Positions 1,834-56,092 of a DNA stretch of 64,000 nucleotides are shown here, in pieces. This DNA comes from a phage: the NCBI GenBank assembly GCA_012401045.1, contig GCA_012401045.1_4704.2. One strand, given 5' to 3'. Below the pieces are notes generated by a model that was not told the origin of the DNA, made no database searches, and was given only the letters and a program-made list of their open reading frames with translations. Position numbers and translations under genes: made by a program. The stretch's first letter is position 1, and the number at the start of each line of letters is the position of its first letter.

Positions 1834-4743
1834 ATGAACGATATAAATAAAGGGCGCGTCGCCCTCGAACGTCAAATGAGTAATAATGACGTTGCGAAGG
1901 CACTCATGAACAAATTTGTCGCTCCTGCTCCGCAGTCACGTCTTTATAATACACGTGATGCGGAAGGAGCGAACGGTCGTTTCGGGTTAGTTGTTCCCGA
2001 CCAAATGACGATGAACACGGTTACGCGTGCGACCGCGACAAACATCGAGGATAATAAAAACATCCTCGAGTTGTTCCCTGAACTTAAACGTGTGATGCAG
2101 ATCTACGTTGCCGCGTTGACGAACCCTAACGATCTTAAGACGGTCGAGATGTTTATCGATAGCGAAGATTTCCCCGGCAGAGTCGCAGAAATCGTTCAGC
2201 CGATGATCGATACCATCGACACGCATTTTAAGAATATCTATAAAATAAAGACGCTTATCCCTCGTATCATCGAAGACGTCTTCTTTATCAAGGGCAGTTA
2301 TAACTTCGTTGTTCTGCCGGAAAGCACGCTCGACCGCGCCATTAATGGTAACGGTCAACTGAAACTTGAAGAATACGGATTTAAAGACAACCATTTTGCA
2401 AGTTGGGGGCTTCTAGGTAACGACAGTCGCAAACGCCACGAAAATCAATTACCTGCGACGGTTTCGATGGAAGATTATTTCTCGGGTGTTAATGAAACCA
2501 TACCGTACGATCCTGTTGTTCGCATAGACAGCATCAAGTTTACCAATACCCTGCTTCGCGATAAGGACGGTAAATTCATTGAAGCGAAGATCGATATTCC
2601 GGATATGGTTACGGTTGTCGATAACCCAGACATCCTCCGCATGCCTATTCTGCATCAACGTCGAGCAGCGACAGCAGTGCAGCGTGCGTTACGCGCAAAC
2701 ACGTTAGGAGGTAGTGGTTTGGTAACGCTGTCAGGCGATCCGACCCTAACCGCTAACCGACGTGAGCTGTCGCAAGAACAGGTTAACGAGATCTGGAATA
2801 AGCTCAACATCCAGCGCCACACCAAGGTATCGCCCGTTTACGCGCTGGCAACCCCAGATACGCTTGATCGTCAAAGCGTTGGCCATCCTGGCGTGATGCA
2901 TGTACCACCTGAGGCATTAGAACCCGTACATGCGCCCGGTGATCCTGAGAACCATATCGGGTATTTGGTTCAGTTGGATGAGTTTGGTTATCCAGTACGT
3001 TTGGTTGAAGATGCGGCGTATTACAAGCAGTTGGAAGGTCGGTTGTCGAAGATCACCGCAGATATCGCAGGTACGTCAAGCAACGGCATGGCGAGCGAGA
3101 TGATTGGTGCAGCCAAGAACATGATCCAGGGTACGTCATGTAATCAGGTAGACATGTCGGCCTTCGTATCATCGTACGAATCGCTGATGCAACGTTACAT
3201 TGTCGAACGTATCGTTAACGGTTATCTTGGCAGTGCGGTGGAGATCGGTGCGACATCATCGTTTTATCTGTCGATGCTTGCTCGTAGCCTCGCTCACAAG
3301 CAGACCCGTGTTTTGTTTATTCCTCGAGAGATGGTGACTTACATCGCTTATGAATACAACAAATACGGTATCGGTCGTTCGCTGCTTGAAAGTACGAAGA
3401 TGATCTCATCGCAACGAGCCATGCTCATGGTTCAAGAACTGATGGCGAAAATCAAAAGTTCGTTGAACTATACGACGCTAAGCGTAATGCTTGAAGACAC
3501 CGACAGAAACCCGGTCGATACCGTCGAACAAGCGCTGCATAGTTTCGCTCGTGTCTACCAGTCTGGTTTCCCTCTGGGTGAAACTAACCCGATGGATATC
3601 ATCAACGCGTACGAACGAAGCTCGATTCGATTGAAGGTTGAGGGGAATAACCCACGCTTCCCGAAATTGAATACAGACGTCAGTGTTGAGCAGCGTAACT
3701 ATCAGTCTCCTGATAATGAGCTGATGGATCGTTACCGTCGTGACCATTTCATGGGCTTGGGTGTGTCTCCGGAGATTATCGATACTTCCTACCAATCTGA
3801 ATTCGCAGCTTCTGTGATTACAGCTAACGCGATGCAAGAGAAACAGTTCACGGTTTGTCGTGAGGTGATCACGAATGGGTTATCGGACCACATCAAGAAA
3901 TATACGGCATACAGTCCCGTGTTGTTGACGTCGTTACGAAACACGGTTCGTGCGAACATGTCTAAGCTCTCCCAGGCACAATTGAAGCAGCTTTTTGGTA
4001 GCGATTTCGAAAACGGTGTTATCCGTAACGTTAACGCCTATCAGGAGATTGACGACCAATCAGCAACAATGGATCTGGATTACACTAAACCAGAAGTCCA
4101 GGAAGTTATTGCCGATGCTTATGTGTCCATGTTCTTAAACAGCCTGCGTGTGCGTTTACCGGATAGCAATGCCCGTCGCCTTGAAGATCAGGTACGTGAA
4201 TATAATCAGTACAAGGAAGCGATTACTGCGCAACTTGATGATTATTTAACGCCTGATTACGTCATGGGTCTGGGTGGGGTTGATGAAACAACGCTGCAGA
4301 TGATCCGCGCATGCATTATTGGTACCGCGATGCGTACGTGGGCAAAAGAGAACAACTTCAATCAGGAGCTGGCTGATCTCTTCAGTCTTGACGATAAGAA
4401 GAATGCCGTGCAAGATTGGAAACGTATGTCCATGGAACATATTGAAGTCATGGGTAAATGCATGGGTGATTTTGCATTGTATATTCAGAATCTGACGAAG
4501 AAGATTGAAGAGAAGATGGGAGCTCAAGCACAGGACGGTAGCGTTTCATCTGATGGTTCGTGGTCATCCGATTCAAGTAGCGATACCGGTTCTTCTGATG
4601 ACTTCGGTGGCGGTGACGATTTCGGAGATACCGATTTCGATACCGAAACGATGGAGGAAACCTCAACAGAAGAAACAACCACATCTGAGGATACGACGAC
4701 CGACACAACGTCAGAAGACGATACTTCAGGTGACATTGTCTAA
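1834..4743 (+). CDS. large protein (969 aa) with acidic Ser/Thr/Asp/Glu-rich C-terminal tail; possibly portal or other virion protein (unverified)
   Basis: ORF track; AGGAG about 10 nt upstream of ATG; last ~70 aa are SSDGSWSSDSSSDTGSSDDFGGGDDFGDTDFDTETMEETSTEETTTSEDTTTDTTSEDDTSGD. Confidence 0.85.
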   Translation: MNDINKGRVALERQMSNNDVAKALMNKFVAPAPQSRLYNTRDAEGANGRFGLVVPDQMTMNTVTRATATNIEDNKNILELFPELKRVMQIYVAALTNPNDLKTVEMFIDSEDFPGRVAEIVQPMIDTIDTHFKNIYKIKTLIPRIIEDVFFIKGSYNFVVLPESTLDRAINGNGQLKLEEYGFKDNHFASWGLLGNDSRKRHENQLPATVSMEDYFSGVNETIPYDPVVRIDSIKFTNTLLRDKDGKFIEAKIDIPDMVTVVDNPDILRMPILHQRRAATAVQRALRANTLGGSGLVTLSGDPTLTANRRELSQEQVNEIWNKLNIQRHTKVSPVYALATPDTLDRQSVGHPGVMHVPPEALEPVHAPGDPENHIGYLVQLDEFGYPVRLVEDAAYYKQLEGRLSKITADIAGTSSNGMASEMIGAAKNMIQGTSCNQVDMSAFVSSYESLMQRYIVERIVNGYLGSAVEIGATSSFYLSMLARSLAHKQTRVLFIPREMVTYIAYEYNKYGIGRSLLESTKMISSQRAMLMVQELMAKIKSSLNYTTLSVMLEDTDRNPVDTVEQALHSFARVYQSGFPLGETNPMDIINAYERSSIRLKVEGNNPRFPKLNTDVSVEQRNYQSPDNELMDRYRRDHFMGLGVSPEIIDTSYQSEFAASVITANAMQEKQFTVCREVITNGLSDHIKKYTAYSPVLLTSLRNTVRANMSKLSQAQLKQLFGSDFENGVIRNVNAYQEIDDQSATMDLDYTKPEVQEVIADAYVSMFLNSLRVRLPDSNARRLEDQVREYNQYKEAITAQLDDYLTPDYVMGLGGVDETTLQMIRACIIGTAMRTWAKENNFNQELADLFSLDDKKNAVQDWKRMSMEHIEVMGKCMGDFALYIQNLTKKIEEKMGAQAQDGSVSSDGSWSSDSSSDTGSSDDFGGGDDFGDTDFDTETMEETSTEETTTSEDTTTDTTSEDDTSGDIV

Positions 4744-4828
4744 ACGGATGTAAAAAAAATAACACATAGTTAACCTTCTCCCCAACCCGATGAGGGAAGG
4801 GGAGAAGGGCTATGCGCTATTTAATTTA

Positions 4829-11276: not shown

Positions 11277-11365
11277 TATCACGGTGCCGGATGAATGTCC
11301 GGTGCAATGAAACCATCCGCAACGTTGTCATCAAGAATATCATCCAACGAAGCAGCTACGGTAGT

Positions 11366-13588
11366 TCAGTTAGTCTGAACCGGCAGCTTGATGTTTTCAG
11401 TGTAGACCTTACGCAGGTTCACAACGTTAATCAGACCCAGCAGCGGGCAGTTGTTAACGAAGCGGCAGCGCGGCTGAACCATGGTTTCTTTAGAAACCTG
11501 ACCGTTACGGGTAACCTGAGCAACAGATACCAGTTCCGGTACGTACAGGAACATACCGAAGGTCAGCGGATCCGGAGAACCCTGGATACCACGAGACAGG
11601 GTCACGAAGATCTTATCGCGCAGCATGACGTTCGGGTTATCTACAACCACGAAGTTGAAGCTTACACCGACGGTACGGAAATCGCCATCGGTCTGCAGGA
11701 ACTGCGGGATGTAGTTGTCAGTTGCTACTACGCAACGCGGTTTCTCATCGGCGTTGGAAGACAGCAGCTGCAGAGCTGGCTGATAACCAGACTCGGAGTA
11801 CATGCGGTATGCCATCTCACGAATCACGTTCATGATCGCAGCAGACACTTCAGCACGACGTTCTGCAGTGGTGGTACCCTGAACAGATTTCTCCAGGTCC
11901 AGATTGATTTCTTCGAACCACGGACGGATCAGGTAACGACCGAAACCTTCGATCTGGATGTCACCGAACTGACGGAAGCGAGAGGTCGCAACCGCTTTCA
12001 GTGCGTCTTTGTAGCTGAACAGTTTCTCAACCATCAGGTTGTCGAAACGTGCGTTAGCAGCTTGGATCAGAACGTCCAGGTCAGCAGCGTTTTCTTCCCA
12101 ATCCAGCGGACGAGGAATGGAGAACGGAGCCAGCAGGCCGATTGCGTAACGTTCTTGCTTCATGTTGAAGTCAAGGTGCTTACCGCGTTCACGACGGTTG
12201 CTGTTGTTACGGCGGATACGCAGTTCGTAACCAACCAGTTTGAAGCTCAGGTCTTCAGCCAGTTGTTTGAACTCTTCGCTCTTACGCGGTTGTTCGATGT
12301 TGTCCTGATCAACCAGGCGATACAGTTCAGCGTTAGCGCCGTTAACACGCAGACCCGCTTTCTCTACGTTGGAAGAACCGTAAACTTCGATCGCCAGCTG
12401 AGCAGCAGATTTCGCATCGATGATGTCCTGCAGCGCTTCGGCTTTCGCACCTTTAACGTCTTTGGTGTTCTCATCAACGAAGATGGAGTGGGTGTCGAAC
12501 GCCAGGGTCATTTTGCGGAAGTCGCCTTCCAGGGATTTCTGGAAACCGTTGGTGATCAGACCAGATACGTCGAACGGTACGTAAGAGGTTTTGCTGTGCT
12601 TGGTAGATTTGATTTCCACCAGGATTTTGGTCAGCGTGATCTGGGCGTCCAGCGCGTCGGTGTTGTCGCTATAACCGTTAGCCAGGATGCTATCGTCTTC
12701 AGCGATACCGATCATGTCGATCAGTTTATCAACAGCCAGGTAAGACGTTTTATAAGTTACGCCTTTAATTTCGATGTCGCGCGGAGCAACGATAGCTTTG
12801 TCAACGAAGTACTGCGCGTTAGCATCGTCAGCACGATAGATCGGATGCAGATCGGTCACGTCGTTGGACAGAACGTCGTTGTACATGAACGCATCCAGCA
12901 GCGGACGACGTACCCAATCAGCCGGAGTACCGTCGGCGTTACGACGCAGGTGGTTGAACACCAGCGGACGACGGAAAGATACGTCGTAACCGATCTGGTT
13001 CGGAGCCAGAACGATGGTGTTGTACAGTTCGTTACCCATGCGGCTCAGACGAGAAGCCTTCACGTTGAACACAACGGAGTACGGCATCATGTCACGCAGT
13101 TCTTTCTGGTCGTAGGACAGCTGAACCAGTTCTTCAGATTCGCAACCGCAGGAATCAGCAGCCATCATGACGAAGTTAGAGCTGTCAACTTCACGGCCAG
13201 ACGGAGTGGTGCTGATGTTCATGGAACGTGCTTGTTTAGCATATTCCACCGGGTTACCATGAGCCAGCATGATCAGTGCTGCTGCACGAGCCTGCTGTGC
13301 GTTCATGGTGAACAGCTGTTCTTCAATACGCTGCTTCTCTTCCGGAGTGGTGGTTTCGAAGCCCAGCATGGACAGAACCGGTTCTTCTGCTTTACGGATG
13401 TCGCTGCTGAAGCTCTTAACATCCATTTCGTTAACCAGTTTGTCCATGGATTTGAAATCAACCTTAGAAGCAGATTCCATAGACAGGAAGGTGTTCTCCA
13501 GACCTTTGTCTGCTGGTTTGCTACCATTAGCGGTCAGGAACTGGCGAGTGGCCGCGACCTGTTGGCTAAGAAGGGTTTTATCATTCAT
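11366..13588 (-). CDS. major capsid protein candidate (740 aa, jumbo-phage size class)
   Basis: ORF track; size typical of phiKZ-like capsid proteins (~740-750 aa); very strong highly-expressed codon bias (ctg, cgt, ggt, aac); AAGGAT RBS; followed by stem-loop b. Confidence 0.7.
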   Translation of the reverse strand: MNDKTLLSQQVAATRQFLTANGSKPADKGLENTFLSMESASKVDFKSMDKLVNEMDVKSFSSDIRKAEEPVLSMLGFETTTPEEKQRIEEQLFTMNAQQARAAALIMLAHGNPVEYAKQARSMNISTTPSGREVDSSNFVMMAADSCGCESEELVQLSYDQKELRDMMPYSVVFNVKASRLSRMGNELYNTIVLAPNQIGYDVSFRRPLVFNHLRRNADGTPADWVRRPLLDAFMYNDVLSNDVTDLHPIYRADDANAQYFVDKAIVAPRDIEIKGVTYKTSYLAVDKLIDMIGIAEDDSILANGYSDNTDALDAQITLTKILVEIKSTKHSKTSYVPFDVSGLITNGFQKSLEGDFRKMTLAFDTHSIFVDENTKDVKGAKAEALQDIIDAKSAAQLAIEVYGSSNVEKAGLRVNGANAELYRLVDQDNIEQPRKSEEFKQLAEDLSFKLVGYELRIRRNNSNRRERGKHLDFNMKQERYAIGLLAPFSIPRPLDWEENAADLDVLIQAANARFDNLMVEKLFSYKDALKAVATSRFRQFGDIQIEGFGRYLIRPWFEEINLDLEKSVQGTTTAERRAEVSAAIMNVIREMAYRMYSESGYQPALQLLSSNADEKPRCVVATDNYIPQFLQTDGDFRTVGVSFNFVVVDNPNVMLRDKIFVTLSRGIQGSPDPLTFGMFLYVPELVSVAQVTRNGQVSKETMVQPRCRFVNNCPLLGLINVVNLRKVYTENIKLPVQTN

Positions 13589-13737
13589 TGAAAGTATCCT
13601 TTACAGAATTAACTTATATAAGTCGGTCGATAGACCATAGCGTACACGCGTGCATGCGCCACTATAGTATCAGTAAACACTTACCGTTATTGAGGTCGTG
13701 ATACAACACTAAAAATGCCGCATAACTTTTCCCTACG

Positions 13738-14358
13738 TCATAAACGACGCAGGCGATAATGGATGGAACGATTGGTGCAATATGAACGGAACAGCGGCAA
13801 TTGCGCAACTTCCGCAAGACTCATATTAATTCGCAGGTGTTCAATAACGGCGCTGTAGTTATCAGCAATACGATCGCTCAATAACTCTTCTGCCAATAAA
13901 GGAAGACAATCGACAACAATCGCGATCACATCCTCATTAACATAACGCACCCGAACACTCAACGGACGTTTGTCTGGGCTGTAAGTTGGATCCGCCAAAC
14001 GACGTTCAATATCACGCGGATAGCTCGTCAGTAAATGGTAATAACCATTGTCATAACGATTGATGTACTCACACAGCACATCAACATTCTTCTCTGGCGG
14101 CAAACCTGTTTCGTCATAGTGATACGCAAACATACCACCAAGCAGGTTGTTAAGATGAACCGCAGGGTTCGCTTGTTCGTGTTCTTTCGTGATGAAGAAA
14201 GGCACATTTTGAGCTGCGAAATAAAAACCTACATCATTGGGCGATAGTATGCCGAAAAGACTTTTAGGGTCTAATAACACCTGTAAGTCATCACGCGCAT
14301 TTCGAATAATCGCGTGTTCTACCCAATTCGGAACGACGAGATATCGGAGTTCCTTCAT
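13738..14358 (-). CDS. hypothetical protein (206 aa)
   Basis: ORF track; AAAGAGG RBS. Confidence 0.8.
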   Translation of the reverse strand: MKELRYLVVPNWVEHAIIRNARDDLQVLLDPKSLFGILSPNDVGFYFAAQNVPFFITKEHEQANPAVHLNNLLGGMFAYHYDETGLPPEKNVDVLCEYINRYDNGYYHLLTSYPRDIERRLADPTYSPDKRPLSVRVRYVNEDVIAIVVDCLPLLAEELLSDRIADNYSAVIEHLRINMSLAEVAQLPLFRSYCTNRSIHYRLRRL

Positions 14359-14397
14359 TATGATTACCTCTTTGCAAGTATCGAAAGGATTGAGTCG

Positions 14398-16008
14398 ATG
14401 GACCCAAAACAGATAGCCATTAAGATTATTACGTTACTGTTTCGTAATGCACAATTGAACCATCCCGATCCCAGTACGATCGAACATGTTAAATCCGTCT
14501 TAGATAAAGTCGAACCCCCGAAAAACCATCTCGCTACAGACGTAGATAGAGAGGTTTTCAACAACCTGATGAATACCATTCATTGGATGTTGGAACAACC
14601 ATTATCGGAACCTTTCGATAAACAACAGTTGTTACAAAGGATACGTTTGGATTGCCTTGAACAAAGCAATCTTTACGAGATTCTTGCCGACGGACTGTAC
14701 GATATCGAAGACGACGCTCATATCAGTAAGGTCTGTTCACTCTATTACAACGAATTACGTAATCTGATTACCCGTCGTCGTGTTTTCGAAACCTTTAGAA
14801 ACACGTACATGGATATCAGTAACGGGCGACTTGGGGATAAAGAATTTTTCGATGCAATGGCGAATCTGAAATTATCGCTAGACAGTATCGAAATGGATAC
14901 CGAAAATCCCGAAGAGATGTCGTGTATGATTGACGGCTTTATCGCTGACAGCGAAGACGATATCGAGAAAGTCGAACGTATGTTCGTCAAAGCGATGGAA
15001 CGTAACAGTCCTGAAGGTGGATTTGTAACCGGCTGGCAAGGCTTTAATAAAATGTTGGGGTCGGTCGGCGTTTTACGTCGCGGTACCTTAGGACTGATCG
15101 GTGCAATGCAGCACCGGAACAAGTCAGGCGTGTTGTTAAAACTGTTCACACATCTGGCATTGTACAACAAACCCCATTTCTTTTTCCCGGAGCGAGCAAA
15201 GAAAGCATTACTGATTCATTTGTCGACAGAAAACGAAGTGGAAGAAAACACGCTTCAGATATACAAGAACATGCGAGAACAGGAAACAGGCGAATATGTC
15301 GATATTCGTAAGATTGACCCTCGCGAGGCATCACGTTATGTGTTGAAGGTGTTCAACGATGCGGGTTTCTCTGTTTGTATGCGTCGTGTTGATGGGATGA
15401 GTTATAAACAACTCGCTAATCTCATCGACCATTTCGAACGCATGGGTTATGAAGTCATGGCGTTGTTCATTGACTATCTGAAAATGTTCTCATCGGAAGG
15501 GTTGGATAGAAATGGACCGACCGGCGCATGGCTCCAAGAACTCTTCAACAAAGTACGTAACCTCTGCAGCGTCAAACGTATTTTAGGTATGACTGTACAC
15601 CAGCTGTCATCCGATGCGAAGATGCGTGCGCGTGATGGTAACGATGAAGAGTTTGTTGACCAGGTCGCAGGTTTAAGTTACTGGGATGGTTGTAAAGGGA
15701 TCGACCGTGAGATTGACCTTGAAGTGATTGTTGATATCGTTAAGGAGCCGGGCAAACGTCAAAGCTGGCAGGTCTTTGCGTTAGGGAAAGACCGTCAACC
15801 GGATAACGGTTCAACGAAACCTGAAGACAAACATTTCGCGATGCCATTCCAAACCATCGGGATGCTTCCTGATGATTACGGTAAGAAAGCAGTATATTGC
15901 CGCAAGGTTGGCGGACAACCTGTCTCCGAGGGAGGTAAAGGTCCGTGGAACAAGTTCGATGAAAACGCAGCACCGAGTAATGAATTACAATTTGATTTAG
16001 AATTTTAA
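14398..16008 (+). CDS. DnaB-like replicative helicase (RecA-like domain) with atypical P-loop
   Basis: Start moved to ATG after AAGGA; motifs LIGAMQHRNKSG (Walker A-like, N in place of G), MALFIDYLKMF (DnaB H2 / Walker B, compare IDYLQLM), VHQLSSDAK (compare SQLNR). Confidence 0.6.
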   Translation: MDPKQIAIKIITLLFRNAQLNHPDPSTIEHVKSVLDKVEPPKNHLATDVDREVFNNLMNTIHWMLEQPLSEPFDKQQLLQRIRLDCLEQSNLYEILADGLYDIEDDAHISKVCSLYYNELRNLITRRRVFETFRNTYMDISNGRLGDKEFFDAMANLKLSLDSIEMDTENPEEMSCMIDGFIADSEDDIEKVERMFVKAMERNSPEGGFVTGWQGFNKMLGSVGVLRRGTLGLIGAMQHRNKSGVLLKLFTHLALYNKPHFFFPERAKKALLIHLSTENEVEENTLQIYKNMREQETGEYVDIRKIDPREASRYVLKVFNDAGFSVCMRRVDGMSYKQLANLIDHFERMGYEVMALFIDYLKMFSSEGLDRNGPTGAWLQELFNKVRNLCSVKRILGMTVHQLSSDAKMRARDGNDEEFVDQVAGLSYWDGCKGIDREIDLEVIVDIVKEPGKRQSWQVFALGKDRQPDNGSTKPEDKHFAMPFQTIGMLPDDYGKKAVYCRKVGGQPVSEGGKGPWNKFDENAAPSNELQFDLEF

Positions 16009-16012
16009 ACGC

Positions 16013-16025
16013 AAAAAAAAAAAAA
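16013..16025 (+). repeat. A13 homopolymer between helicase stop and stem-loop c
   Basis: 13 consecutive A; on the minus strand this is a U13 tract about 12 nt after the hairpin. Confidence 0.8.
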
Positions 16026-16037
16026 GATTGTACGGTT

Positions 16038-16075
16038 CCCTCCTCCAACCCGTAAGGGAAGGAGGAAGGTTTATG
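16038..16075 (-). terminator. GC-rich extended stem-loop, family member c
   Basis: CCCTCCTCC-AA-CCC-GTAA-GGG-AA-GGAGGAAGG then TTTATGACCGC; convergent gene ends on both sides. Confidence 0.5.
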
Positions 16076-16085
16076 ACCGCTTTGA

Positions 16086-16412
16086 TTAACTTATTGTCAT
16101 GAATTCATTAGGTGAAAATTTCCAGCCGTTCTCAGTGAGAAGCGTGTTGAGTTTTGCCGCAACGATAAGCCATGCATGCATGGCCGTTACATCGTATTGG
16201 CGATTCACTCGACGTTGGTTTTCGATATTGATTTGCTCCTGTTCAGTGATGTTTGGATAAAGTGCGATAGCGCTAGGTTTACCCAGCGCGCTAGTCATCA
16301 CCGCCGTACATTCACTGATAATGTTGTTTAAGTGGTAGTTATACACCGTTCCACGCATGACGCGATGACGGCATTCGATAATAGCGTCGTAAATGATTTC
16401 TCGAGTAATCAT
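16086..16412 (-). CDS. hypothetical protein (108 aa)
   Basis: ORF track. Confidence 0.7.
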   Translation of the reverse strand: MITREIIYDAIIECRHRVMRGTVYNYHLNNIISECTAVMTSALGKPSAIALYPNITEQEQINIENQRRVNRQYDVTAMHAWLIVAAKLNTLLTENGWKFSPNEFMTIS

Positions 16413-17459: not shown

Positions 17460-17535
17460 CGTATTTTACCTTTCTATGTTAGGTGGATTTCGGATAGAAG
17501 AATCAATGCATAAACTAATTTAAGTTTGTTAAGGT

Positions 17536-18438
17536 TTACTTAGCCTTTGAGTTATACGGACTAACATGTTGTTGTACTCGTTGGATTGTATCGTAGTACG
17601 GGTTAAGTTGATTGAACATGTTGTTGTGTGGGTGATAGCCATATGGCGCATTTTGCCTTGTTGGTGAGAAACCTTGTTGAGAAGGACGGTTTGAATTAAC
17701 CGCGAGTACGTAGTAAACCAAATTTTGGCGGTCGAACGTTCCTTCGTTTTTGAAGGTGTCGGCGTAGGCGCTTACCGCTGGAGCGAGCCTATCACCATCG
17801 GTTGTAATGATTGTGCCATCGGGATAAACTTCCCGAACGACGCACCATGTTCCGATGAGAACATCTTTGGGTGATGTATTACCGTATCCGGTTGTAACGG
17901 TAAGGTAAGTATCGAACCCTTCAGAACAACAAGGATGACGATAGATGGGTCCTGTCATTTCCAGTCTATCGGTGTCACCGCATTTCTCTATTGAGAGCGA
18001 TGATGTGTCGGTTTTGAAATTGTCAAATTCTTTCTTTAAGTCGATTACGGGTTCTTTCGTATAGTACTTCTTGATTGCTTTGACGTAAAGATCGGGAACG
18101 GTTGTCAGCAATCCGTTATACCTGATTCTCAGGTTTTCGAGTAATCCAAAGATGCTCGCGCATGCCTGTTCGCGAGGTTTTGTAAGATAAGAGATCCCCC
18201 CAGGAACGCTGGGATCTTTGAGAAAGAAGATTGCGTTATTGTCGTTGTGCGATGCGTTGAAGAAAACGATTGATTCGATATATACGGAGCATAGGCTGTC
18301 GTTGGCGTCGTCAGATAACACCCAGATGCACTCATCGGTCGTCTTGTTTAAAAGTTCTGTTTTGTCGACCAAACGTTGTTTCATTGCGAGGAAATGTGCC
18401 TGTTGTTCAGCGGATAATTCACGATAAATGGTGGTCAT
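17536..18438 (-). CDS. hypothetical protein (300 aa), paralog of 18524-19306
   Basis: ORF track; shared block PIYRHPCCSEGFDTYLTVTTGYG...REVYPDGTI versus PIYVHPECHTTYDRYLTITGGVA...REIYPDGRI. Confidence 0.8.
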   Translation of the reverse strand: MTTIYRELSAEQQAHFLAMKQRLVDKTELLNKTTDECIWVLSDDANDSLCSVYIESIVFFNASHNDNNAIFFLKDPSVPGGISYLTKPREQACASIFGLLENLRIRYNGLLTTVPDLYVKAIKKYYTKEPVIDLKKEFDNFKTDTSSLSIEKCGDTDRLEMTGPIYRHPCCSEGFDTYLTVTTGYGNTSPKDVLIGTWCVVREVYPDGTIITTDGDRLAPAVSAYADTFKNEGTFDRQNLVYYVLAVNSNRPSQQGFSPTRQNAPYGYHPHNNMFNQLNPYYDTIQRVQQHVSPYNSKAK

Positions 18439-18523
18439 GTTGAGCTCCTTGATTACGATAAGGATGATTGCGGTTTTGTGGTGTTGGTAGGGCCCTAAAC
18501 AAATGAACCCTACTAATATTAGG

Positions 18524-19306
18524 TTAATCGGGATCGGCGTAGAAATGGTGAGGATAGCCGGAGTACGATCCCGCGTTACCGGTTATGGATTCTTTCTGGG
18601 AATCGACGACGAGTGCATAGAACTGTCGGGAATTTGTTAGCGTTGAGAAATAAGAGGAAAGGACTTTTTCATTCAACGCATCGCAAGGTAGACAGGTGCG
18701 ACCGCAAAACGTCACGATACGGCCGTCAGGATAGATCTCACGAATCATTCTCCACTCGCCAATATCGACTGGTGATGGCGCTGCTACACCACCTGTTATC
18801 GTTAAGTAACGATCGTACGTGGTATGGCATTCAGGATGAACGTAAATCGGTTGGGCATCAATACTATCGTTTTCTGTTTGATCTTTATTCACGTATACCT
18901 CAAGGTAGATTGTTGGTAACCCGGTTAGAACGCCAGTGTCACGACGTTTTTTGGTAATCCGGGGACGGATATTATCGAGCACGCCTTCCAGTTTTTCTGC
19001 GACTTCGTCAGCCGGTAATATATACCCGTATGTTGGTTCTGGGTCATCACCGTGGCTAAATAAGATACGACAGTCGTTTTTATTAAATTCTATATCTTCA
19101 GGTGGGAAGATGATGACGCGAACCGTATGGCGTTCTGCGATATAAAATCCTTCAGGCCCCTCAGTTTTGGTAAGTGTAAAGGACCAGGATGAATGATCTT
19201 CAAGTGACGTGCCTGCCAGGAAAAAGTCCGCCCGAATTGGTGCGTTCCATTTCGCGATCATATTGGCGTGACCAATAACGCCTAATTTTTGATAAATATC
19301 TGTCAT
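18524..19306 (-). CDS. hypothetical protein (260 aa), paralog of 17536-18438
   Basis: ORF track; GAGGA RBS; promoter/operator-like cassette immediately upstream. Confidence 0.8.
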   Translation of the reverse strand: MTDIYQKLGVIGHANMIAKWNAPIRADFFLAGTSLEDHSSWSFTLTKTEGPEGFYIAERHTVRVIIFPPEDIEFNKNDCRILFSHGDDPEPTYGYILPADEVAEKLEGVLDNIRPRITKKRRDTGVLTGLPTIYLEVYVNKDQTENDSIDAQPIYVHPECHTTYDRYLTITGGVAAPSPVDIGEWRMIREIYPDGRIVTFCGRTCLPCDALNEKVLSSYFSTLTNSRQFYALVVDSQKESITGNAGSYSGYPHHFYADPD

Positions 19307-19413: not shown

Positions 19414-19457
19414 CATAAGCCCTCTCCCAACCCGTAAGGGAAGGGAGAGGGAATATT
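19414..19457 (-). terminator. GC-rich extended stem-loop, family member d
   Basis: CATAAG-CCCTCTCCC-AA-CCC-GTAA-GGG-AA-GGGAGAGGG-AATATT; stop codon of upstream minus gene overlaps 3' flank. Confidence 0.5.
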
Positions 19458-24672: not shown

Positions 24673-24718
24673 CGCAGATTCCTGTTTGAAAGATAAGATA
24701 TCACATGATGGTCGACAG

Positions 24719-24752
24719 CATAAAGCCCACCCCGAAGGGCGGGCTGTTTATG
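24719..24752 (-). terminator. GC-rich stem-loop, family member m (diverged: GCCC-A-CCC-CGAA-GGG-C-GGGC)
   Basis: CATAAA before and TGTTTATG after the stem; directly 3' of the 1125-aa gene. Confidence 0.45.
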
Positions 24753-44525: not shown

Positions 44526-47321
44526 TTAAGCTAATTTACCGAAACCGGCTTTCTGCAGTTTCTCGTTGATGATTTTCGCTTCAGCGAAGACGTAATCACG
44601 ATACGCAGTGACTAATCCGTCCACCCGTGAACGCAAGGCTTCTTCGAAGCTATACCACGCAGCGATTTCACGAATCTGTGCGTTGATATAATCAACGGTT
44701 GAGCGAAGCTCGGTTGCGTTTTCTTGCGGAATGGCTTTCACCTGGCGAGCAACGTCATTTAAACGACGGAACTGTGTTTCGATTTCTTTAAACTTACTGT
44801 CGGCAAGTTTGCTGAATTCGTCACCAGAACGGGTAAATAACAGATAGCTGTTGCCGTCAAGTGCGGTCGCTAACTGCTGAAGTACGTTGGTGTCCGGATA
44901 CACAGGAGTACCGCTTTGCAGTACTTTCTCACCGAATTCCGCGAAGTCCTTCGGTGGTAAGTGTGCAGACGTTGTCAATTCGTTGAAACGGAAAGTCAGC
45001 GAATTATCATACAGCATCCGGTACGCTTCCATACCCTGTTTCATGGTACCGGCCAGGTTAGCCAGACGCGGAGCAATCTCGCCTTCTTTAGCGCGTTTCT
45101 GGTCTTCTAACGCCCCTTCGAGTTCTTTACACTGGTCGTTCAGATACACGATACGATCAGGACGTAGACGACGCATCTCACGAAGAATAGTATCCAGCTT
45201 ACCTTCCTGGAAATAACCCAACGTTAAAGACGTACACGCTTGCTGAAGACGATCGAACACCGGTAAGGTTACCATCTCCTTACGGATACCATCAACAATC
45301 GCAGAAACAGCCGAAAGTTTCTGTTCTGTAGTCAATGGAACATCAGAGGCCGACTTGCTGGGTGCACCAACAACGTTACGCATTGCGTCGGTATCCTCGG
45401 TTTTATCAACCTCTTTACGAACATGCTCATCAGGAACATAAACGTTCGCGTTACGTTTCGCCTGCTTGATGGCGTCGTTGGCCGCTTTTTCGGTGGCTGC
45501 TACGCTATCAGCACGTTTCTTCAAGAGTTCAATAATCCAGAGCAACAGACGACGAATCGCAGTATAGGCCGTCGTGATGATGACACCGATAACAGCCATC
45601 TTCATGATACCGAACGATTCCATGGTCGGCTCTAACGCTTGGTCTGGCATATACCGTTCACGCAGCTCCAGATAGATCTGCTCATCTGGTTTGCTGACCT
45701 CACCACGATGCGAAGTACGATAGATGGCTTCGTCAATCTCAACAAGATCTTTGCGGGCCTGGCGATCGGATTCTGTTAAGTAAGCACAACCGGATACGTC
45801 GTCTTCGAAGCTTAAGAATTTGAAAAAGTCACTGACGTCGATCTTGATCTTCTTCGCTTCATTATCGACATCGATAACATCTTTTTTCTGTGCCTGATAT
45901 TCCGCTTTGATGTCGTTCACCGGCTTCAACGCACGTTCTTTTAATGCCTGCACGATCTGTTTCCAGTCGGCGTCACGCTCAAGAACAAGGAAGTAATTCT
46001 TGAGTTCAAAAGCACGGTAACGCGCAACGAGTTGTTCTACCTGAATATGAGCGAGTTGCACATCCATCAGCCAACGCGACATTGCTGAGATCAAACGGCT
46101 ATAAGCAAGCAATGTCTGATATGTTAGCTTCATGTGCTTTTCGTACAGCTCAATATCGCCGTCTTGAATATCAGCCGTTGGGTTCATTTCCTTCGTTGCT
46201 TTGAAGATCTGTTCGGCCTCATTTAACGTTTGTTCGAATTTGACTTCATTAAACGTGTCAAACGGTTCAGCCAACTCCATCATTCGATCGTGAAGCTCAC
46301 GAACCCAGGCTTCCTTATTGTTGCGAATAGCTGCGTCATCGTGAAGTTCAGTTTGATGTTTCTGTACCCATTCTTCGACGATATCAGCGGCGGCAACAAT
46401 TCCTGTACCATCGGAAACTAACGGAACAACTCCAGCAAGTACGCCTACACACGCCGGGGTTTTCCAATAATCGTTCAAAGCGTTTCTGAATTCAACGATG
46501 GATTGTACGTTTGGTACCGTATCCAAAAACGTACTGCCGTTACGGCTCATTGTCGTTACGATATCAGCGAATTCCTTCTGCTTAGCGGTAACAAAAGGAA
46601 CCAGGACCATAAGCCATTCAGCAACCGACTTCGCTTTCTCTTTCAGATTTTTGTCAGCGATTTCCTTAAGGTTTATCGCACCACCGTAACCTGCAAGCTC
46701 TTTATATACGTCGCTAAGGGTCATCTGTTTATCCAACATTTCTTTGAAACGTGGGTAATCAGCACCTAACGCATCGACAATATCGTTGATTACGTCATCA
46801 GTTGTTGCGATAAACTTCTTCGTATCAACGTTTGAATATTTCCAGACGTATCGTACTGCTTTCTTGATTCCTGCAAAGATAAACGCCCAGATACGCTTGA
46901 TGAGTTCCCAGACTTTCTTCGCGCCATCGACAAACAGTTTAGAGACCTTGGCAACGAATCCTTCCTGCACCAATTCAACGCCGTTACGTGATGGGATTTC
47001 CGTGAAGAAAGCATCCGGCAGTTGTTTCGGGAATGCGTCACCAAGACGCATACGCAGTTCCGGTACATCAGCACGAGAAATACCGCGTGTTACTAATTGT
47101 TCGTGAAGACGAACGTTTTCTTCACCAGAGGTCACGAATTCGTCAACATCGAAGGAGACCATTGTTTCCTGATCTTCGGTGGTAACGACGCTTGAACCAT
47201 CACTGGTTTGGATGTCTTCGTCAGGGAATGCCATGAGCATACCGTGACGCATTTCAACCACCCCGTAATCGGTTGCTAAACCGAATTCGTTGTGGTCTGG
47301 GGTAATAACTGGGATACTCAT
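44526..47321 (-). CDS. large virion-type protein (931 aa); N-terminal region homologous to paralog family
   Basis: ORF track; AAGGAG RBS; motif ELVQEGFVAKVSKLFVDGAKKVWELIKRIWAFIF. Confidence 0.9.
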   Translation of the reverse strand: MSIPVITPDHNEFGLATDYGVVEMRHGMLMAFPDEDIQTSDGSSVVTTEDQETMVSFDVDEFVTSGEENVRLHEQLVTRGISRADVPELRMRLGDAFPKQLPDAFFTEIPSRNGVELVQEGFVAKVSKLFVDGAKKVWELIKRIWAFIFAGIKKAVRYVWKYSNVDTKKFIATTDDVINDIVDALGADYPRFKEMLDKQMTLSDVYKELAGYGGAINLKEIADKNLKEKAKSVAEWLMVLVPFVTAKQKEFADIVTTMSRNGSTFLDTVPNVQSIVEFRNALNDYWKTPACVGVLAGVVPLVSDGTGIVAAADIVEEWVQKHQTELHDDAAIRNNKEAWVRELHDRMMELAEPFDTFNEVKFEQTLNEAEQIFKATKEMNPTADIQDGDIELYEKHMKLTYQTLLAYSRLISAMSRWLMDVQLAHIQVEQLVARYRAFELKNYFLVLERDADWKQIVQALKERALKPVNDIKAEYQAQKKDVIDVDNEAKKIKIDVSDFFKFLSFEDDVSGCAYLTESDRQARKDLVEIDEAIYRTSHRGEVSKPDEQIYLELRERYMPDQALEPTMESFGIMKMAVIGVIITTAYTAIRRLLLWIIELLKKRADSVAATEKAANDAIKQAKRNANVYVPDEHVRKEVDKTEDTDAMRNVVGAPSKSASDVPLTTEQKLSAVSAIVDGIRKEMVTLPVFDRLQQACTSLTLGYFQEGKLDTILREMRRLRPDRIVYLNDQCKELEGALEDQKRAKEGEIAPRLANLAGTMKQGMEAYRMLYDNSLTFRFNELTTSAHLPPKDFAEFGEKVLQSGTPVYPDTNVLQQLATALDGNSYLLFTRSGDEFSKLADSKFKEIETQFRRLNDVARQVKAIPQENATELRSTVDYINAQIREIAAWYSFEEALRSRVDGLVTAYRDYVFAEAKIINEKLQKAGFGKLA

Positions 47322-47758
47322 GCATTCTCTCCTTGCAGTGCGTTAGCGAAAGCCGTTGCGAGTTGCGCAACCAGCTTAGGATCAACACCTTCGATAACGT
47401 CGGGCAGCCCTGCGGTTTCTTGGTCACGAACGGCGGAGGCTAATAACAGCATGGTTTCAGGTGCGGTCGGCTCATGCACCATGCGGTAACGCAGGCACCA
47501 GAAGTAGCGGGCAACGTCTAACGCATCGGCCAGCCCAATAACCAGTACCTTGTTCAGCTTATCCAGCCCTTCACGGATTTTAGGGAGATGTTCGCGAACG
47601 AAAATGCTATCTGCGGTCAGATCTTCTTTTTCAGCGAATACGGGCATGCTGTAACCAGCGATATAACCTGCGGCAATACTTAGCGCACGGGTCTGTTGTT
47701 CGGCTGGGAAATCACGTACCAGGTCTTTCAGCTGAACGGCGAAATCAGAAATATTCAT
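47318..47758 (-). CDS. hypothetical protein (146 aa)
   Basis: ORF track; AAAGGAA RBS. Confidence 0.75.
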   Translation of the reverse strand: MNISDFAVQLKDLVRDFPAEQQTRALSIAAGYIAGYSMPVFAEKEDLTADSIFVREHLPKIREGLDKLNKVLVIGLADALDVARYFWCLRYRMVHEPTAPETMLLLASAVRDQETAGLPDVIEGVDPKLVAQLATAFANALQGENA

Positions 47759-47790
47759 GTTAAATTCCTTTATAGTAAAAATAGAAGAGA

Positions 47791-49101
47791 TTAGGCGATA
47801 ATGGAGTCAAGAGTCGCTGCGGTTTTGAACAGATCGTTGTTCATTGTAGAAGAAAGGACTTGCTGAATTTCTTCCTGTTTAACCGCTTTACGAACCCCAG
47901 GACGAAGGATAAGCGTAACCATCTGTGAAAAGGTACGATTATTGTTCATCGCACTCAGCGTTTCATCGATTGTTTTGATGGCATCCAGCGTCATGGAACG
48001 AACATCGCTTGGGATATCACGATCTTTCAAGCGTATAATTAAATCTTGTTTGATTTTACGGAATCGTTCCATGTCGTTATCGTAAATGCTGTATGTCGGA
48101 TCTAACCAAACAGAAAGCGCGGTTACAGCGACAACAACCAACACGCCGATAGCACCAACAGAAGCTAAACCTATCGCCATCATAGAAGCTATAGTAGCAT
48201 CCATGATGAAGGAGAGCCAGAACATCGTTTTGGACTTCACGGAGTCTTTGCTATAAAGCCGATACATTTTAGCAAGCCCGCTAACGAGATACTCCCCACC
48301 GCCATGACGCGTAGCGAACTGATCAGCCATGAATTCGGAAGCAACGTCGGTATATCGTCCAGCGTTGTTTACGTTTCTTAACTGCATCGCTCTGTTAGAC
48401 ACGTAAACCGTGTACCAGACACTACCGTCGTCTGAATCACTGATTTTGTCTACGTCGACGTTGGTATCCAACGTTTTGTTTAACGCTTTCGCCAGTTCGA
48501 TACGTTTTACCTTATCGGTTGTCCCCAACAGTTCACGCTGTACGGTCATGATTGAGGCTTCGACACGAACCGTTTCCGACAATGTTTCAAGGAAGGTAAA
48601 TGCGTGCCCGATTTCATGCAGCATTATGGCTGCTTTTTCTTCCGGAAGAAAGGGTTCTGTCGCCGTTAGCAGTTCATACGTGATGGCAGAACGAATCTTC
48701 AATTCTTCAAAAATACCGTAAACACGACCTTTTTCTAAATCGACGTAACCGACAGGTGTATCTTTAATCTTCTTAAGGAGCGTAACACCATCAGCACCGC
48801 GCATCCATAACCGATGATAGTCTGCCAGGATTGTGTTGTTTGTCGAAATATCCGGCGGGTACACGTAGGCATTCATCCGGCCCATTTTCACGTCGACCGA
48901 GAATTCGATGTTCAACCCCGTATAGCGTTTAACCATCTCGGTTAAACGACCGTCCTTGAAAACGTTTAAAACCTCTTTTTTATCCAGTCCCTGTTTGCTT
49001 CTGAAGAACTCGGTCATTTCCTTGAACAAGGAACCATCTTGAAACTTGATGGCCTCCATCGTTAATTCGTCATGACCATACACGCGTTGTAGTAATGACA
49101 T
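47791..49101 (-). CDS. putative membrane-anchored zinc metalloprotease (HExxH)
   Basis: ORF track; motif MLHEIGHAF; hydrophobic stretch FWLSFIMDATIASMMAIGLASVGAIGVLVVVAVTALSVWL. Confidence 0.6.
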   Translation of the reverse strand: MSLLQRVYGHDELTMEAIKFQDGSLFKEMTEFFRSKQGLDKKEVLNVFKDGRLTEMVKRYTGLNIEFSVDVKMGRMNAYVYPPDISTNNTILADYHRLWMRGADGVTLLKKIKDTPVGYVDLEKGRVYGIFEELKIRSAITYELLTATEPFLPEEKAAIMLHEIGHAFTFLETLSETVRVEASIMTVQRELLGTTDKVKRIELAKALNKTLDTNVDVDKISDSDDGSVWYTVYVSNRAMQLRNVNNAGRYTDVASEFMADQFATRHGGGEYLVSGLAKMYRLYSKDSVKSKTMFWLSFIMDATIASMMAIGLASVGAIGVLVVVAVTALSVWLDPTYSIYDNDMERFRKIKQDLIIRLKDRDIPSDVRSMTLDAIKTIDETLSAMNNNRTFSQMVTLILRPGVRKAVKQEEIQQVLSSTMNNDLFKTAATLDSIIA

Positions 49102-55391: not shown

Positions 55392-55994
55392 TTACATGCT
55401 TTCTAGCATATTGACGATCATGGAACCCATACCGAAACTCGGTCTTTCACCGATGTACTCAGCAAGCTGGCGATGGACGTCTTTTGGATTTCCTTCTTCA
55501 CCATCGGCATCGATGTAAACCGAAAAAGAAACCGAATCGGAATCCACGCTGATAACCAGACGACGTTCATTGCGTTCCTTGAGCGTGTCGACGATAGATG
55601 CTTTCAGTACCGGGATCGCATTCATCGCGTGCAAGATATCTCCATCGGGTTTCGGCAGATCGATCTTTTCTTTCAGGTCGATATTGATGTTGGTTACAAT
55701 TGGATTGAGGTCGACCTTGACATAATCGTTAGGATACATGCGAATAATCGCACGATCGATATCTGAGCCGTAAAAGTCAACACGCGGCTTTAACACTTCT
55801 TTGTTTGGATCCATGTTTTCATCCATCCCAGCCTGCAAGAAACGTTCTACGTTATCCAGTTCACGATAAACTGACGCTTCGATTTCTTTCAGATAGTTGG
55901 CTGCGGTTTCATGTTCTTTACGCAGCTCGTCTTTAAGGAGCTGTACGGTGGTTTCACTGGAACGGATGCTGTTCGCGAATTGTGTAATTGACAT
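55392..55994 (-). CDS. hypothetical protein (~200 aa)
   Basis: ORF track; start moved to ATG (MSITQ) after AAGGA. Confidence 0.75.
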   Translation of the reverse strand: MSITQFANSIRSSETTVQLLKDELRKEHETAANYLKEIEASVYRELDNVERFLQAGMDENMDPNKEVLKPRVDFYGSDIDRAIIRMYPNDYVKVDLNPIVTNINIDLKEKIDLPKPDGDILHAMNAIPVLKASIVDTLKERNERRLVISVDSDSVSFSVYIDADGEEGNPKDVHRQLAEYIGERPSFGMGSMIVNMLESM

Positions 55995-56092
55995 ATCGAA
56001 TTCCTTAAATTCTCTTGAGTTCAATTAATGATGAAAAGCTGTAAAAAAAGGTGGGGCGAACCCCACCAAAACGTCAGACACACGCAGGAAAA

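Follow-up and report, generated by a model that had tools for sequence, protein, structure and literature searches.

Can a replicative helicase work when its phosphate-binding loop lacks the glycine that canonically precedes the Walker A lysine, and what is the long A run that follows its gene? Both questions are raised by an open reading frame at 14398..16008 (+) of the window, the 64,000-nucleotide stretch of phage DNA analysed here. The initial annotation, made from the letters and their open reading frames, had described a DnaB-like helicase with a degenerate Walker A loop that may alter or abolish ATPase chemistry, followed by an A13 tract prone to slippage. The reading frame, the odd P-loop and the A13 tract are all real. 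Of the reading placed on them, the helicase identity, the site of the P-loop, the occurrence of the substitution across the family and the variability of the tract stand; the word 'degenerate' and the loss of ATPase activity do not. Taken together, we consider it quite probable that the gene encodes an active divergent DnaB-like helicase with a remodelled P-loop, and that the A13 tract beside it likely aids leftward transcription termination.

The helicase reading frame spans 14314..16008 (+), and the ATG at 14398 yields a protein of 536 residues. This start agrees with the annotation of gp043 in Escherichia phage Goslar and with the MDxKLL N-terminus that the homologues conserve. The window and Goslar share about 97% identity, and on this basis the source is a Goslar-like chimallivirus, in line with the mention of Chimalliviridae at the outset. 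The helicase gene itself shares 97.3% nucleotide and 99.6% protein identity with Goslar gp043, which is annotated "DnaB-like replicative helicase" and which, with phiKZ gp118 and RAY gp315, is among its orthologs. The major capsid protein (MCP) gene is at 11366..13588 (-), two genes away from the helicase as in phiKZ, and the order MCP, small gene, helicase is common to phiKZ gp120-gp119-gp118; the helicase of this Goslar-like phage thus lies in a block with a phiKZ-type major capsid gene, the context, in a phiKZ-like (chimallin-encoding) phage, in which PF20307 proteins are expected. A long plus-strand open reading frame at 11291..13591 and other antisense frames under the helicase gene were rejected as shadows of real genes. 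Because 36 synonymous and 2 non-synonymous codon changes separate the gene from its Goslar counterpart, it is, as judged from this comparison, under strong purifying selection. The features discussed below are collected in Table 1.

Table 1 Features of the helicase gene and its downstream junction (positions are those of the window).
Feature	Coordinates	Strand	Basis or remark
CDS, divergent DnaB-like replicative helicase	14398..16008	+	536 aa plus stop
N-terminal all-helical domain (about residues 1-141), equivalent of the DnaB N-terminal domain	14398..14820	+	AF2, Foldseek
Linker helix (about residues 147-167)	14836..14898	+	AF2; residues 168-181 after it are a low-confidence loop
RecA-like ATPase domain (about residues 186-516)	14953..15945	+	PF20307, profile alignment to 4NMN/2VYE/2R6A, AF2
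Variant Walker A / P-loop, G235-A-M-Q-H-R-N241-K242-S243-G244	15100..15129	+	N241 at the canonical Gly site
E278 codon, presumed catalytic base	15229..15231	+	Aligns with the Glu of DnaB 'SLEM'; 170/170, 4NMN alignment
Walker B block I-D359-Y-L-K-M-F (residues 358-364)	15469..15489	+	Aligns to 'VDYLQLL' / 'IDYLQLI'
H401-Q402-L-S-S block (residues 401-405)	15598..15612	+	Equivalent of DnaB 'AQLSR' / 'SQLSR'; Q402 presumed gamma-phosphate sensor
K464-D-R466 ('GKxR'), presumed trans-acting Lys and Arg finger	15787..15795	+	Family conservation
Low-confidence C-terminal tail (residues 517-536), acidic, ending ...FDLEF	15946..16005	+	AF2, homologue alignment
A13 homopolymer (U13 on minus-strand RNA)	16013..16025	.	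Length varies among near-identical phages
Hairpin c: core 16038..16069 plus outer 5-bp stem	16032..16080	.	One member of a 7-copy family
Convergent downstream gene, Goslar gp044 homolog	16086..16412	-	108 aa

Family membership and fold were assessed with profile and structure searches. The protein matches Pfam PF20307, "Divergent DnaB-like ATPase" (divDNAB), at 1.4e-120 (402.7 bits versus a cut-off of 26), and the match is above the gathering threshold and covers residues 151-513, or model positions 3-355 of 356. PHROG 3213, 'DnaB-like replicative helicase', is matched at full length (1.2e-122). Besides PF20307, the families listed by the Pfam scan of the helicase were two weak, unrelated ones, with DnaB_C (PF03796) not among them, and the NCBIfam scan listed no match, to a DnaB model or otherwise; precomputed PF03796 matches are present on three homologues. 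A single-sequence search of PDB sequences with the helicase returned nothing meaningful, whereas the family profile did reach DnaB, with 4NMN (Aquifex aeolicus DnaB) at E = 5.5e-6. The AF2 model has a mean pLDDT of 79.6, with values of 85-91 around the P-loop, and the best 50 PDB matches listed for it by Foldseek are all DnaB, T4 gp41 or the DnaB-like helicase 3BGW. The Foldseek alignments to DnaB-type chains, full-length DnaB among them, extend over about 500 columns (E about 1e-14, TM 0.44-0.56). By both AF2 and Foldseek the protein has the DnaB layout of an N-terminal helical domain, a linker helix and a RecA-like C-terminal domain. The DnaB-like identity proposed initially is borne out by the PF20307, PHROG 3213 and Foldseek matches, and the gene is a member of a catalogued and already known family, the divergent DnaB-like helicases of nucleus-forming jumbo phages.

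The position of the catalytic motifs was examined in alignments of the family profile with DnaB crystal-structure sequences (4NMN, 2VYE and 2R6A), all of which align in a single register. The profile string ALqhnfKtG falls on ARPGMGKTA (4NMN) or ARPSVGKTA (2VYE, 2R6A); in the same alignments, islEn corresponds to FSLEM, iDYL to VDYL or IDYL, and HQLS to AQLS or SQLS. The IDYLKMF and HQLSS blocks are present where the initial annotation had put them. The P-loop is also where it had been placed, and it does lack the canonical glycine, but the string HRNKSG quoted for it is out of register, its trailing G lying outside the motif. The Walker A octet is A236-M-Q-H-R-N-K242-S243, and its sole loss relative to the DnaB pattern A-R-P-x-x-G-K-T is the Gly before the Lys; the canonical [AG]xxxxGK[ST] is not matched, with Asn241 in place of Gly. 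The K464/R466 motif is beyond the reach of the DnaB alignments, and it is a putative counterpart of the DnaB 'GKQR' arginine-finger motif.

Two readings that would remove the puzzle, a true Walker A elsewhere in the protein or a fold other than that of DnaB with HRNKSG as a coincidence, found no support, and the chance that either is correct is negligible. The three DnaB structure sequences align at the loop in a common register, and in the AF2 model the loop is positioned between a strand (residues 231-236) and a helix (residues 239-256) in a P-loop-like manner. In addition, the best fold matches are all DnaB-type helicases, and among the tabulated positions no invariant Lys other than K242 has an invariant Ser/Thr next to it on the C-terminal side. 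We therefore excluded these readings on the strength of the DnaB alignments, the placement of the loop by AF2, the Foldseek matches and the conservation of K242.

Conservation across the family was measured in 170 family sequences, mostly representatives of 50%-identity clusters. K242, S/T243, E278 and D359 are each found in 170/170, and Q402, K464 and R466 in 167/168, 166/168 and 165/168, respectively. Position 241 (n = 170) is Tyr in 72 sequences, Phe in 63, Asn in 17, Trp in 7, Gly in 4 and His in 4; that is, Tyr, Phe, Asn or Trp occupies this site in 94% of the family and Gly in 2%. The P-loop scaffold A-[LM]-Q-H-x-[Y/F/N/W]-K-[ST]-G is family-wide, and the Goslar-clade version, AMQHRNKSG, occurs in 4/170 sequences. 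One check that had been suggested, whether other Chimalliviridae helicases carry the same substitution, was run on this alignment of 170 members, and the same kind of substitution is indeed seen in them. With Lys, Ser/Thr, Glu and Asp invariant in all 170, and Gln and the putative Lys/Arg finger conserved at 98-99%, calling the Walker A degenerate overstates the case. A modified ATP-binding loop combined with an intact Mg2+/catalytic site (K242, S243, E278, D359) is the trait of PF20307 itself. Iyer et al. 2021 described the divergent DnaB that typifies Group 1 (PhiKZ-type) jumbo phages, noted that its ATP-binding motif is modified and its Mg2+ site intact, and judged it catalytically active (PMC7824862). 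The P-loop deviation is thus a published family trait and no peculiarity of the helicase at 14398..16008 (PMC7824862), and since it is a conserved trait, the question is one of mechanism and not of whether a single gene is broken.

The window helicase shares full-length homology with PF20307 members from RAY, phiKZ and 201phi2-1 (about 31-34% identity), along with the P-loop scaffold A-[LM]-Q-H-x-x-K-[ST]-G and the invariant catalytic residues. It differs from them in the R-N that precedes the Lys in the Goslar clade, where most members have N-F, N-Y or K-Y (Asn occupies the 'Gly' site in 17/170), and in a C-terminal tail that is longer in the Goslar clade. With bacterial and phage DnaB-family (SF4) helicases (for example 4NMN, Geobacillus 2R6A/4ESV and T4 gp41 8GAO) it has in common the two-domain fold and linker helix, and their Walker A Lys-Ser/Thr, 'SLE' Glu, Walker B 'DYL' and 'QLS' block align with its own, although sequence identity in structural alignments is only 11-15%. 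These proteins also differ from the window helicase in the Gly before the Walker A Lys, which is replaced here, and in the family-specific N257-x-P259 and H239, which are invariant in PF20307.

The protein most likely assembles into a hexameric ring and, powered by NTP hydrolysis, unwinds the DNA of the phage within its nucleus. The residues that would perform this chemistry, with individual roles assigned presumptively, are retained: Lys242, Ser243, Glu278, Asp359, Gln402 and Lys464/Arg466. Because the catalytic residues are conserved across the family and the gene is under purifying selection, the sequence evidence suggests that the helicase is most likely not dead but active, its phosphate-binding loop having been remodelled. 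The abolished ATPase chemistry contemplated in the initial annotation is unlikely, given this conservation and the ratio of codon changes (36/2).

A catalytically dead DnaB-fold protein, serving the phage replisome solely as a scaffold or a ring that binds DNA, would account for the absent Gly before the Walker A Lys and for the failure of any canonical DnaB Pfam or NCBIfam model to match. It would also be consistent with the published record, in which we found no biochemical or activity data for any PF20307 family member and nothing related under the names PF20307 or divDNAB. However, if catalysis had been lost, the invariance of K242, S/T243, E278 and D359 and the 98-99% conservation of Q402 and K464/R466 among 170 diverse members would not be expected, and we regard a dead protein as improbable. 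The strong purifying selection on the gene argues against it as well, as does the standing of a divergent DnaB helicase as a hallmark of Group 1 jumbo phages (PMC7824862). Furthermore, four members carry the canonical Gly in a loop that is otherwise identical, which indicates that a standard P-loop and this loop are compatible. The conserved proteins from which chimallivirus phylogeny is built include the replicative helicase, the chimallivirus core block that holds the MCP includes one helicase, and RAY gp315, an ortholog of the window helicase by the homology found here, localises inside the phage nucleus (PMC10299810). Evidence that phiKZ gp118 is essential was sought in ASO and TnSeq studies, whose main texts make no mention of the protein.

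One point against an active enzyme is that, in P-loop proteins known in detail, nucleotide binding suffers when the Gly before the Lys gives way to a residue with a side chain; the loop here must therefore be built differently. Our tentative suggestion, which we would not call probable, is a new working version of Walker A in which a bulky Tyr, Phe, Trp or Asn stands for the near-universal Gly and the conserved Gln-His pair of the loop joins phosphate binding. Were this true, nucleotide preference or regulation could differ from that of host DnaB, and the helicase might be insensitive to factors, from the host or from rivals, that are directed against canonical DnaB. The gene supplies the replicative helicase to phages whose replication takes place inside a protein "nucleus"; interest in such nucleus-forming jumbo phages comes from their candidacy for therapy and from their use as models for compartmentalisation in viruses. 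Its P-loop is a conserved, selected family trait, which poses the question of how a RecA-fold ATPase can function when no Gly precedes its Walker A Lys; current understanding is changed neither by the P-loop result nor by that for the A-tract.

Downstream of the helicase, the A run is exactly 13 nt long and begins 4 nt past the TAA stop. No homopolymer in the window is longer, the runner-up being 8 nt, and about 0.005 runs of at least 13 A or T are expected in 64 kb from base composition, which indicates that the tract is not due to chance. The run lies outside the gene, between the helicase stop and a repeated hairpin at the convergent-gene junction; in a 74%-identical relative, neither tract nor hairpin follows the helicase gene. 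The window has A13 at this site, Goslar and L003 have A9, and L002 has A10. Since its length differs (13, 10, 9 and 9 nt) among these four near-identical phages, the slippage anticipated for the A13 after the stop is real, and the changes would arise by replication slippage while touching no reading frame. Several sequencing platforms are prone to errors in the length of homopolymers, so the difference between A13 and A9 or A10 might be a sequencing or assembly error with no biological basis. We consider this unlikely, since the three other independent assemblies disagree among themselves (9, 10, 9), which suggests that some of the variation is real or at least recurrent, and the bases flanking the tract are otherwise clean. 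As a practical caution, homopolymer length at the 3' site of the helicase gene differs between near-identical phages.

The hairpin that follows the tract, hairpin c, has a core composed of a 9-bp stem, a 2x2 internal loop, a 3-bp stem and a tetraloop, and its minus-strand fold has an energy of -27.6 kcal/mol (z = -3.7). The distance of about 12 nt first given between U13 and this hairpin holds for the core; it is 6 nt when the outer 5-bp stem is included. The hairpin motif is present in 7 copies in the window versus 0.9 expected, and all of these copies have a minus-strand gene ending 29-52 nt away (measured between motif-start and stop coordinates), show compensatory stem changes and are conserved in Goslar. 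When folding energy and G-U pairs are compared between strands, the minus strand is more stable in 5/7 copies, a small and inconsistent difference, and the constant position after minus-strand stops is more informative on the strand of the hairpin than folding energies.

In phiKZ and 201phi2-1, terminators have been experimentally mapped to a CCYCC...GGRGG hairpin that is conserved and has TTAT after it (PMC10914365, PMC11512511). Like these chimallivirus terminators (phiKZ motif BCCYCCCCHWWDGGGRRGGBYTTATKYYGT; 201phi2-1 motif A), the window hairpins are repeated and GC-rich, their 5' arm is rich in pyrimidines and their 3' arm in purines, (T)TATG comes next, and they are intergenic, just past stop codons, with some at convergent pairs. 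The Goslar-type hairpin differs in being longer and falls outside the phiKZ pattern, of which the sole match in the window is a near-exact phiKZ-type motif at 24715..24744 (-). Copy c has U13 on the minus strand instead of TTATG. It alone lacks TTATG in the minus-strand 3' flank, which is found in the other copies, suggesting that the U run may substitute.

A minus-strand transcript of the gp044 homolog would run into hairpin c and then into U13. Read in this direction, 6-12 nt past the hairpin, the tract most likely helps to end leftward transcripts, and the same hairpin, with TTTATG after it on the plus strand, probably ends the helicase mRNA. The A-tract is most likely the length-variable part of a predicted transcription terminator. 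It does not have the form of an intrinsic terminator with a U-tract 0-2 nt after the hairpin, as U13 lies 6 nt past the outer stem and 12 nt past the core, and this gap between stem and U-tract is why hairpin c went uncalled in a simple promoter/terminator scan. An Rfam search of 15900..16200 on both strands gave no match, and a search of the literature for transcript 3'-end data on Goslar-like phages found none.

Alternatively, A13 could be a neutral, slippage-prone spacer, with termination or 3'-end protection provided by the hairpin alone or together with a TTAT-type flank. A homopolymer adjoins only 2/7 hairpin copies (A8 at 4752..4759, and A13 at copy c), the tract is 6-12 nt off the stem and its length varies freely from 9 to 13, and what follows the hairpin in the terminator motif mapped for phiKZ is TTAT and not a long U run (PMC10914365). 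A spacer of this kind is possible but somewhat doubtful in our view: copy c is without TTATG, for which the U run may substitute, and a run of at least 9, far above chance length, is found in 4/4 near-identical phages. A role for the tract in ending leftward transcripts is thus the reading we prefer.

An ATG at 16073, with AGGAGG in the 3' arm of the hairpin, was also considered as a gene start. It was rejected, as it opens only a 9-codon reading frame and belongs to the palindromic CATAA...TTATG stem extension seen in other copies. Two contigs of short-read assemblies end at the repeated palindromic hairpin beside the tract.

The closely related Escherichia phage vB_EcoM_Goslar, a jumbo phage that forms a nucleus, serves as reference for the window: 14398..16100 and Goslar 46471..48169 are 97.3% identical. 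The plus-strand ORF 14398..16008 is the counterpart of Goslar gp043 (RefSeq label "DnaB-like replicative helicase"), and the two proteins are 99.6% identical. Translation starts at ATG 14398 rather than at the upstream GTG 14314, in agreement with the Goslar annotation and with the N-terminus MDxKLL conserved in 21 homologues. By tblastn, the gene is present in 282 phage records, including phiKZ, 201phi2-1, RAY and many jumbo phages of Erwinia, Salmonella, Vibrio, Serratia and Ralstonia. A 766-aa ORF (11291..13591, plus strand) antisense to the major capsid gene was dismissed as a shadow ORF because of its low-complexity translation.

The initial annotation called the product a DnaB-like helicase, and database and fold searches bear this out. 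Its Pfam match is PF20307, "Divergent DnaB-like ATPase" (1.4e-120; 402.7 bits, cut-off 26), and its full length matches PHROG 3213, "DnaB-like replicative helicase". No canonical DnaB models were listed in the Pfam and NCBIfam scans, and a single-sequence search of PDB sequences found nothing; a profile of 22 homologues reaches A. aeolicus DnaB 4NMN (5.5e-6), 2VYE (3.8e-5) and Geobacillus 2R6A (4.1e-5). In an AlphaFold2 model based on the homologue alignment (mean pLDDT 79.6), the N-terminal domain is helical and is followed by a long linker helix and a RecA-like domain. DnaB, T4 gp41 and the DnaB-like helicase 3BGW account for all of the model's top 50 PDB matches (~500 aligned columns, E ~1e-14). 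This leaves no doubt about the DnaB fold. Every testable defining feature of PF20307 is found in the protein. Compared with canonical DnaB, however, it lacks the Walker A Gly, one defining sequence feature, and is not matched by the canonical models, so "Divergent DnaB-like" is the correct label, although it probably works in the same way. The C-terminus (residues 517-536, 15946..16005) is an acidic, low-confidence tail ending ...KFDENAAPSNELQFDLEF, and a similar tail, with LEL at its end, is present in the two relatives of 74% identity. T7 gp4 and SSB proteins contact partners through acidic, aromatic-ended C-terminal tails, which the helicase tail recalls.

Two DnaB signature motifs recognized initially, IDYLKMF and HQLSS, are present in the translation at residues 358-364 and 401-405. 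The P-loop had been read as HRNKSG, which locates it correctly but with the register shifted by one step. Three DnaB alignments agree in setting the family consensus G-A-L-Q-H-N-F-K-T-G opposite DnaB A-A-R-P-G/S-M/V-G-K-T-A, and the Walker A octet is A236-M-Q-H-R-N241-K242-S243. Position 1 is Ala, as in DnaB, and the Lys-Ser pair is kept; the sole departure is Asn241, at the position of the Gly that precedes Lys in DnaB. In the predicted model, the loop lies between strand 231-236 and helix 239-256 (pLDDT 85-91), with the helix apparently starting two or three residues ahead of the Walker A Lys. Such an early start would be compatible with a residue other than Gly at 241, a weak hint given the shallow alignment under the model.

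Conservation was assessed in an alignment of 170 sequences, comprising earlier homologues and the best 150 of 1603 matches (E <= 0.001; 655 at E <= 1e-30) obtained when 1.84 billion cluster representatives were searched exhaustively with a profile. Pairwise identity to the window helicase falls to 22-35%. At position 241, Tyr (72) and Phe (63) predominate, followed by Asn (17), Trp (7), Gly (4) and His (4). Thus the substitution, which the initial annotation proposed to look for in other Chimalliviridae helicases, is family-wide in the form of a non-Gly residue, and the change is not peculiar to the gene in the window; the Asn of Goslar is a minority variant. Three further positions are conserved and family-specific, without counterpart in the aligned DnaB sequences: N257 (170/170) and P259 (162/170) where the P-loop helix ends (residues 257-259, nt 15166..15174), and H239 (148/170) inside the loop. 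These are candidates for compensating contacts in a remodelled loop.

Features of the window and conserved residues of the helicase (fractions are sequences with the residue)
Feature	Position	Strand	Remark
Major capsid gene	11366..13588	minus	Goslar gp041
P-loop GAMQHRNKSG	residues 235-244, nt 15100..15129	plus	from translation
Walker A Lys	K242		presumed role; 170/170
Walker A Ser/Thr	S/T243		presumed role; 170/170
Glu aligned to DnaB "SLEM"	E278		presumed role; 170/170
Walker B	D359		presumed role; 170/170
QLS block	Q402		presumed role; 167/168
Putative finger motif	K464		166/168
Putative Arg finger	R466		165/168
Hairpin c	core 16038..16069; with outer stem 16032..16080
Next gene, Goslar gp044 homolog	16086..16412	minus	convergent with helicase gene on hairpin c
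Insertion ORF, 300 aa	17536..18438	minus
Insertion ORF, 260 aa	18524..19306	minus
Hairpin family copies	4782, 16045, 19427, 30659, 33365, 41640, 63355	plus orientation	~33-45 nt each

An altered P-loop could change or abolish ATPase chemistry, as was initially suggested. Abolition is disfavoured: the residues expected to bind Mg-NTP or to hydrolyse it are invariant or nearly so across a diverse family, and codon differences from Goslar comprise 36 synonymous and 2 non-synonymous changes. Chimallivirus phylogeny makes use of a set of conserved proteins that includes the replicative helicase, the core block with the capsid protein includes one helicase, and the RAY ortholog gp315 lies inside the phage nucleus with DNA (PMC10299810). 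The phiKZ ortholog, gp118, has a matching position with respect to the capsid gene. Iyer et al. 2021 described a divergent DnaB with a modified ATP-binding motif and an intact Mg2+ site, and judged it catalytically active (PMC7824862); we read their motif letter "B" as a slip, the ATP-binding motif being Walker A. From these combined lines we infer hexamer formation and activity, and the helicase is most likely an active hexamer with a remodelled P-loop. On a more novel and less probable reading, of moderate interest if true, the loop is a separate, functional way for a RecA-fold motor to bind phosphate. A literature search turned up neither biochemistry nor a structure for any family member. 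Databases and Iyer et al. 2021 had recorded the helicase identity and the P-loop variant before; only quantitative detail is new, namely the residue spectrum at the Gly site, the catalytic-set invariance in 170 sequences and the series of A-tract lengths downstream.

This tract, initially noted as A13 after the stop, has exactly 13 A (16013..16025) and begins 4 nt past the TAA. No other homopolymer in the window is as long (next longest, 8 nt), and ~0.005 runs of such length are expected by chance from base composition. The helicase protein cannot be altered by slippage there, because the tract lies outside any reading frame. In the alignment with Goslar it is the sole indel in the region (A13 versus A9), and two further assemblies encoding a 98%-identical protein have A10 and A9. 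Length variation among near-identical phages (13/10/9/9) is thus seen directly, in line with the suspected proneness to slippage, although any single length may reflect homopolymer sequencing error. In a 74%-identical relative, neither tract nor hairpin follows the helicase gene and a plus-strand gene starts 10 nt past it, so the tract belongs to the gene junction and not to the helicase gene. A second run, A8 (4752..4759), follows the stop of a plus-strand gene (4743) and precedes a hairpin copy (4775..4808), 14 nt from the stem; the arrangement matches that of A13 and hairpin c.

Hairpin c, between the two convergent genes, folds with -27.6 kcal/mol on the minus strand (z = -3.7) and -23.4 on the plus strand. 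Its centre, CCAACCCGTAAGGGAAGG, belongs to a set of seven related sequences in the window that share their orientation, where chance would give 0.9. Their layout is CCYTCYYCC, AA, CCC, tetraloop, GGG, AA, GGRRGARGG, often flanked by CATAA...TTATG, and the 9-bp stems vary by compensatory changes. Each copy lies 29-52 nt from a minus-strand gene stop codon (motif-start and stop coordinates), and four also follow a plus-strand gene. Over 50 kb compared, Goslar has five copies at the expected places.

Long-read mapping of transcript ends in phiKZ and 201phi2-1 found many terminators with a common element, a conserved CCYCC...GGRGG hairpin and then TTAT (PMC10914365; PMC11512511). In arm composition the Goslar-type hairpins are alike, and (T)TATG comes after most of them on at least one strand; by this analogy the family is probably the Goslar-type equivalent, and hairpin c can be read as a terminator acting in both directions. 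For plus-strand transcription, hairpin c and then TTTATG would end the helicase mRNA. On the minus strand U13 stands in place of the usual TTATG, 12 nt from the core, as initially estimated, and 6 nt from the outer stem; it probably helps leftward transcripts to be released. A simple terminator scan did not call hairpin c, and the U13 spacing is unlike that of a textbook intrinsic terminator. The alternative, a tract that serves only as a spacer prone to slippage, is less likely but not negligible. Elsewhere, GCCCGCCCTTCGGGGTGGGCTTTATGCTGT (24715..24744, minus strand) is a near-exact phiKZ terminator motif (3 mismatches, 0 expected by chance) and corresponds, by coordinate offset only, to a putative terminator annotated in Goslar. 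Between genes 55392..55994 and 56093..56518, 56043..56067 consists of A7 directly followed by GGTGGGGCGAACCCCACC, on the minus strand a textbook hairpin and U7 terminator.

The two public short-read assemblies with A10 and A9 end inside hairpin c (their own positions 3145..3165 and 3144..3164, respectively; approximately 16045..16066 of the window), and one runs on into the reverse-complement arm as a fold-back; the repeated palindrome may break both assemblies. Further downstream, ~1.8 kb with two ORFs (17513..19301) has no equivalent in Goslar, where the site holds just ~90 bp and a 62-aa gene. The two insertion proteins have no Pfam or PHROG matches, and the insertion ends just before the hairpin copy at 19427.
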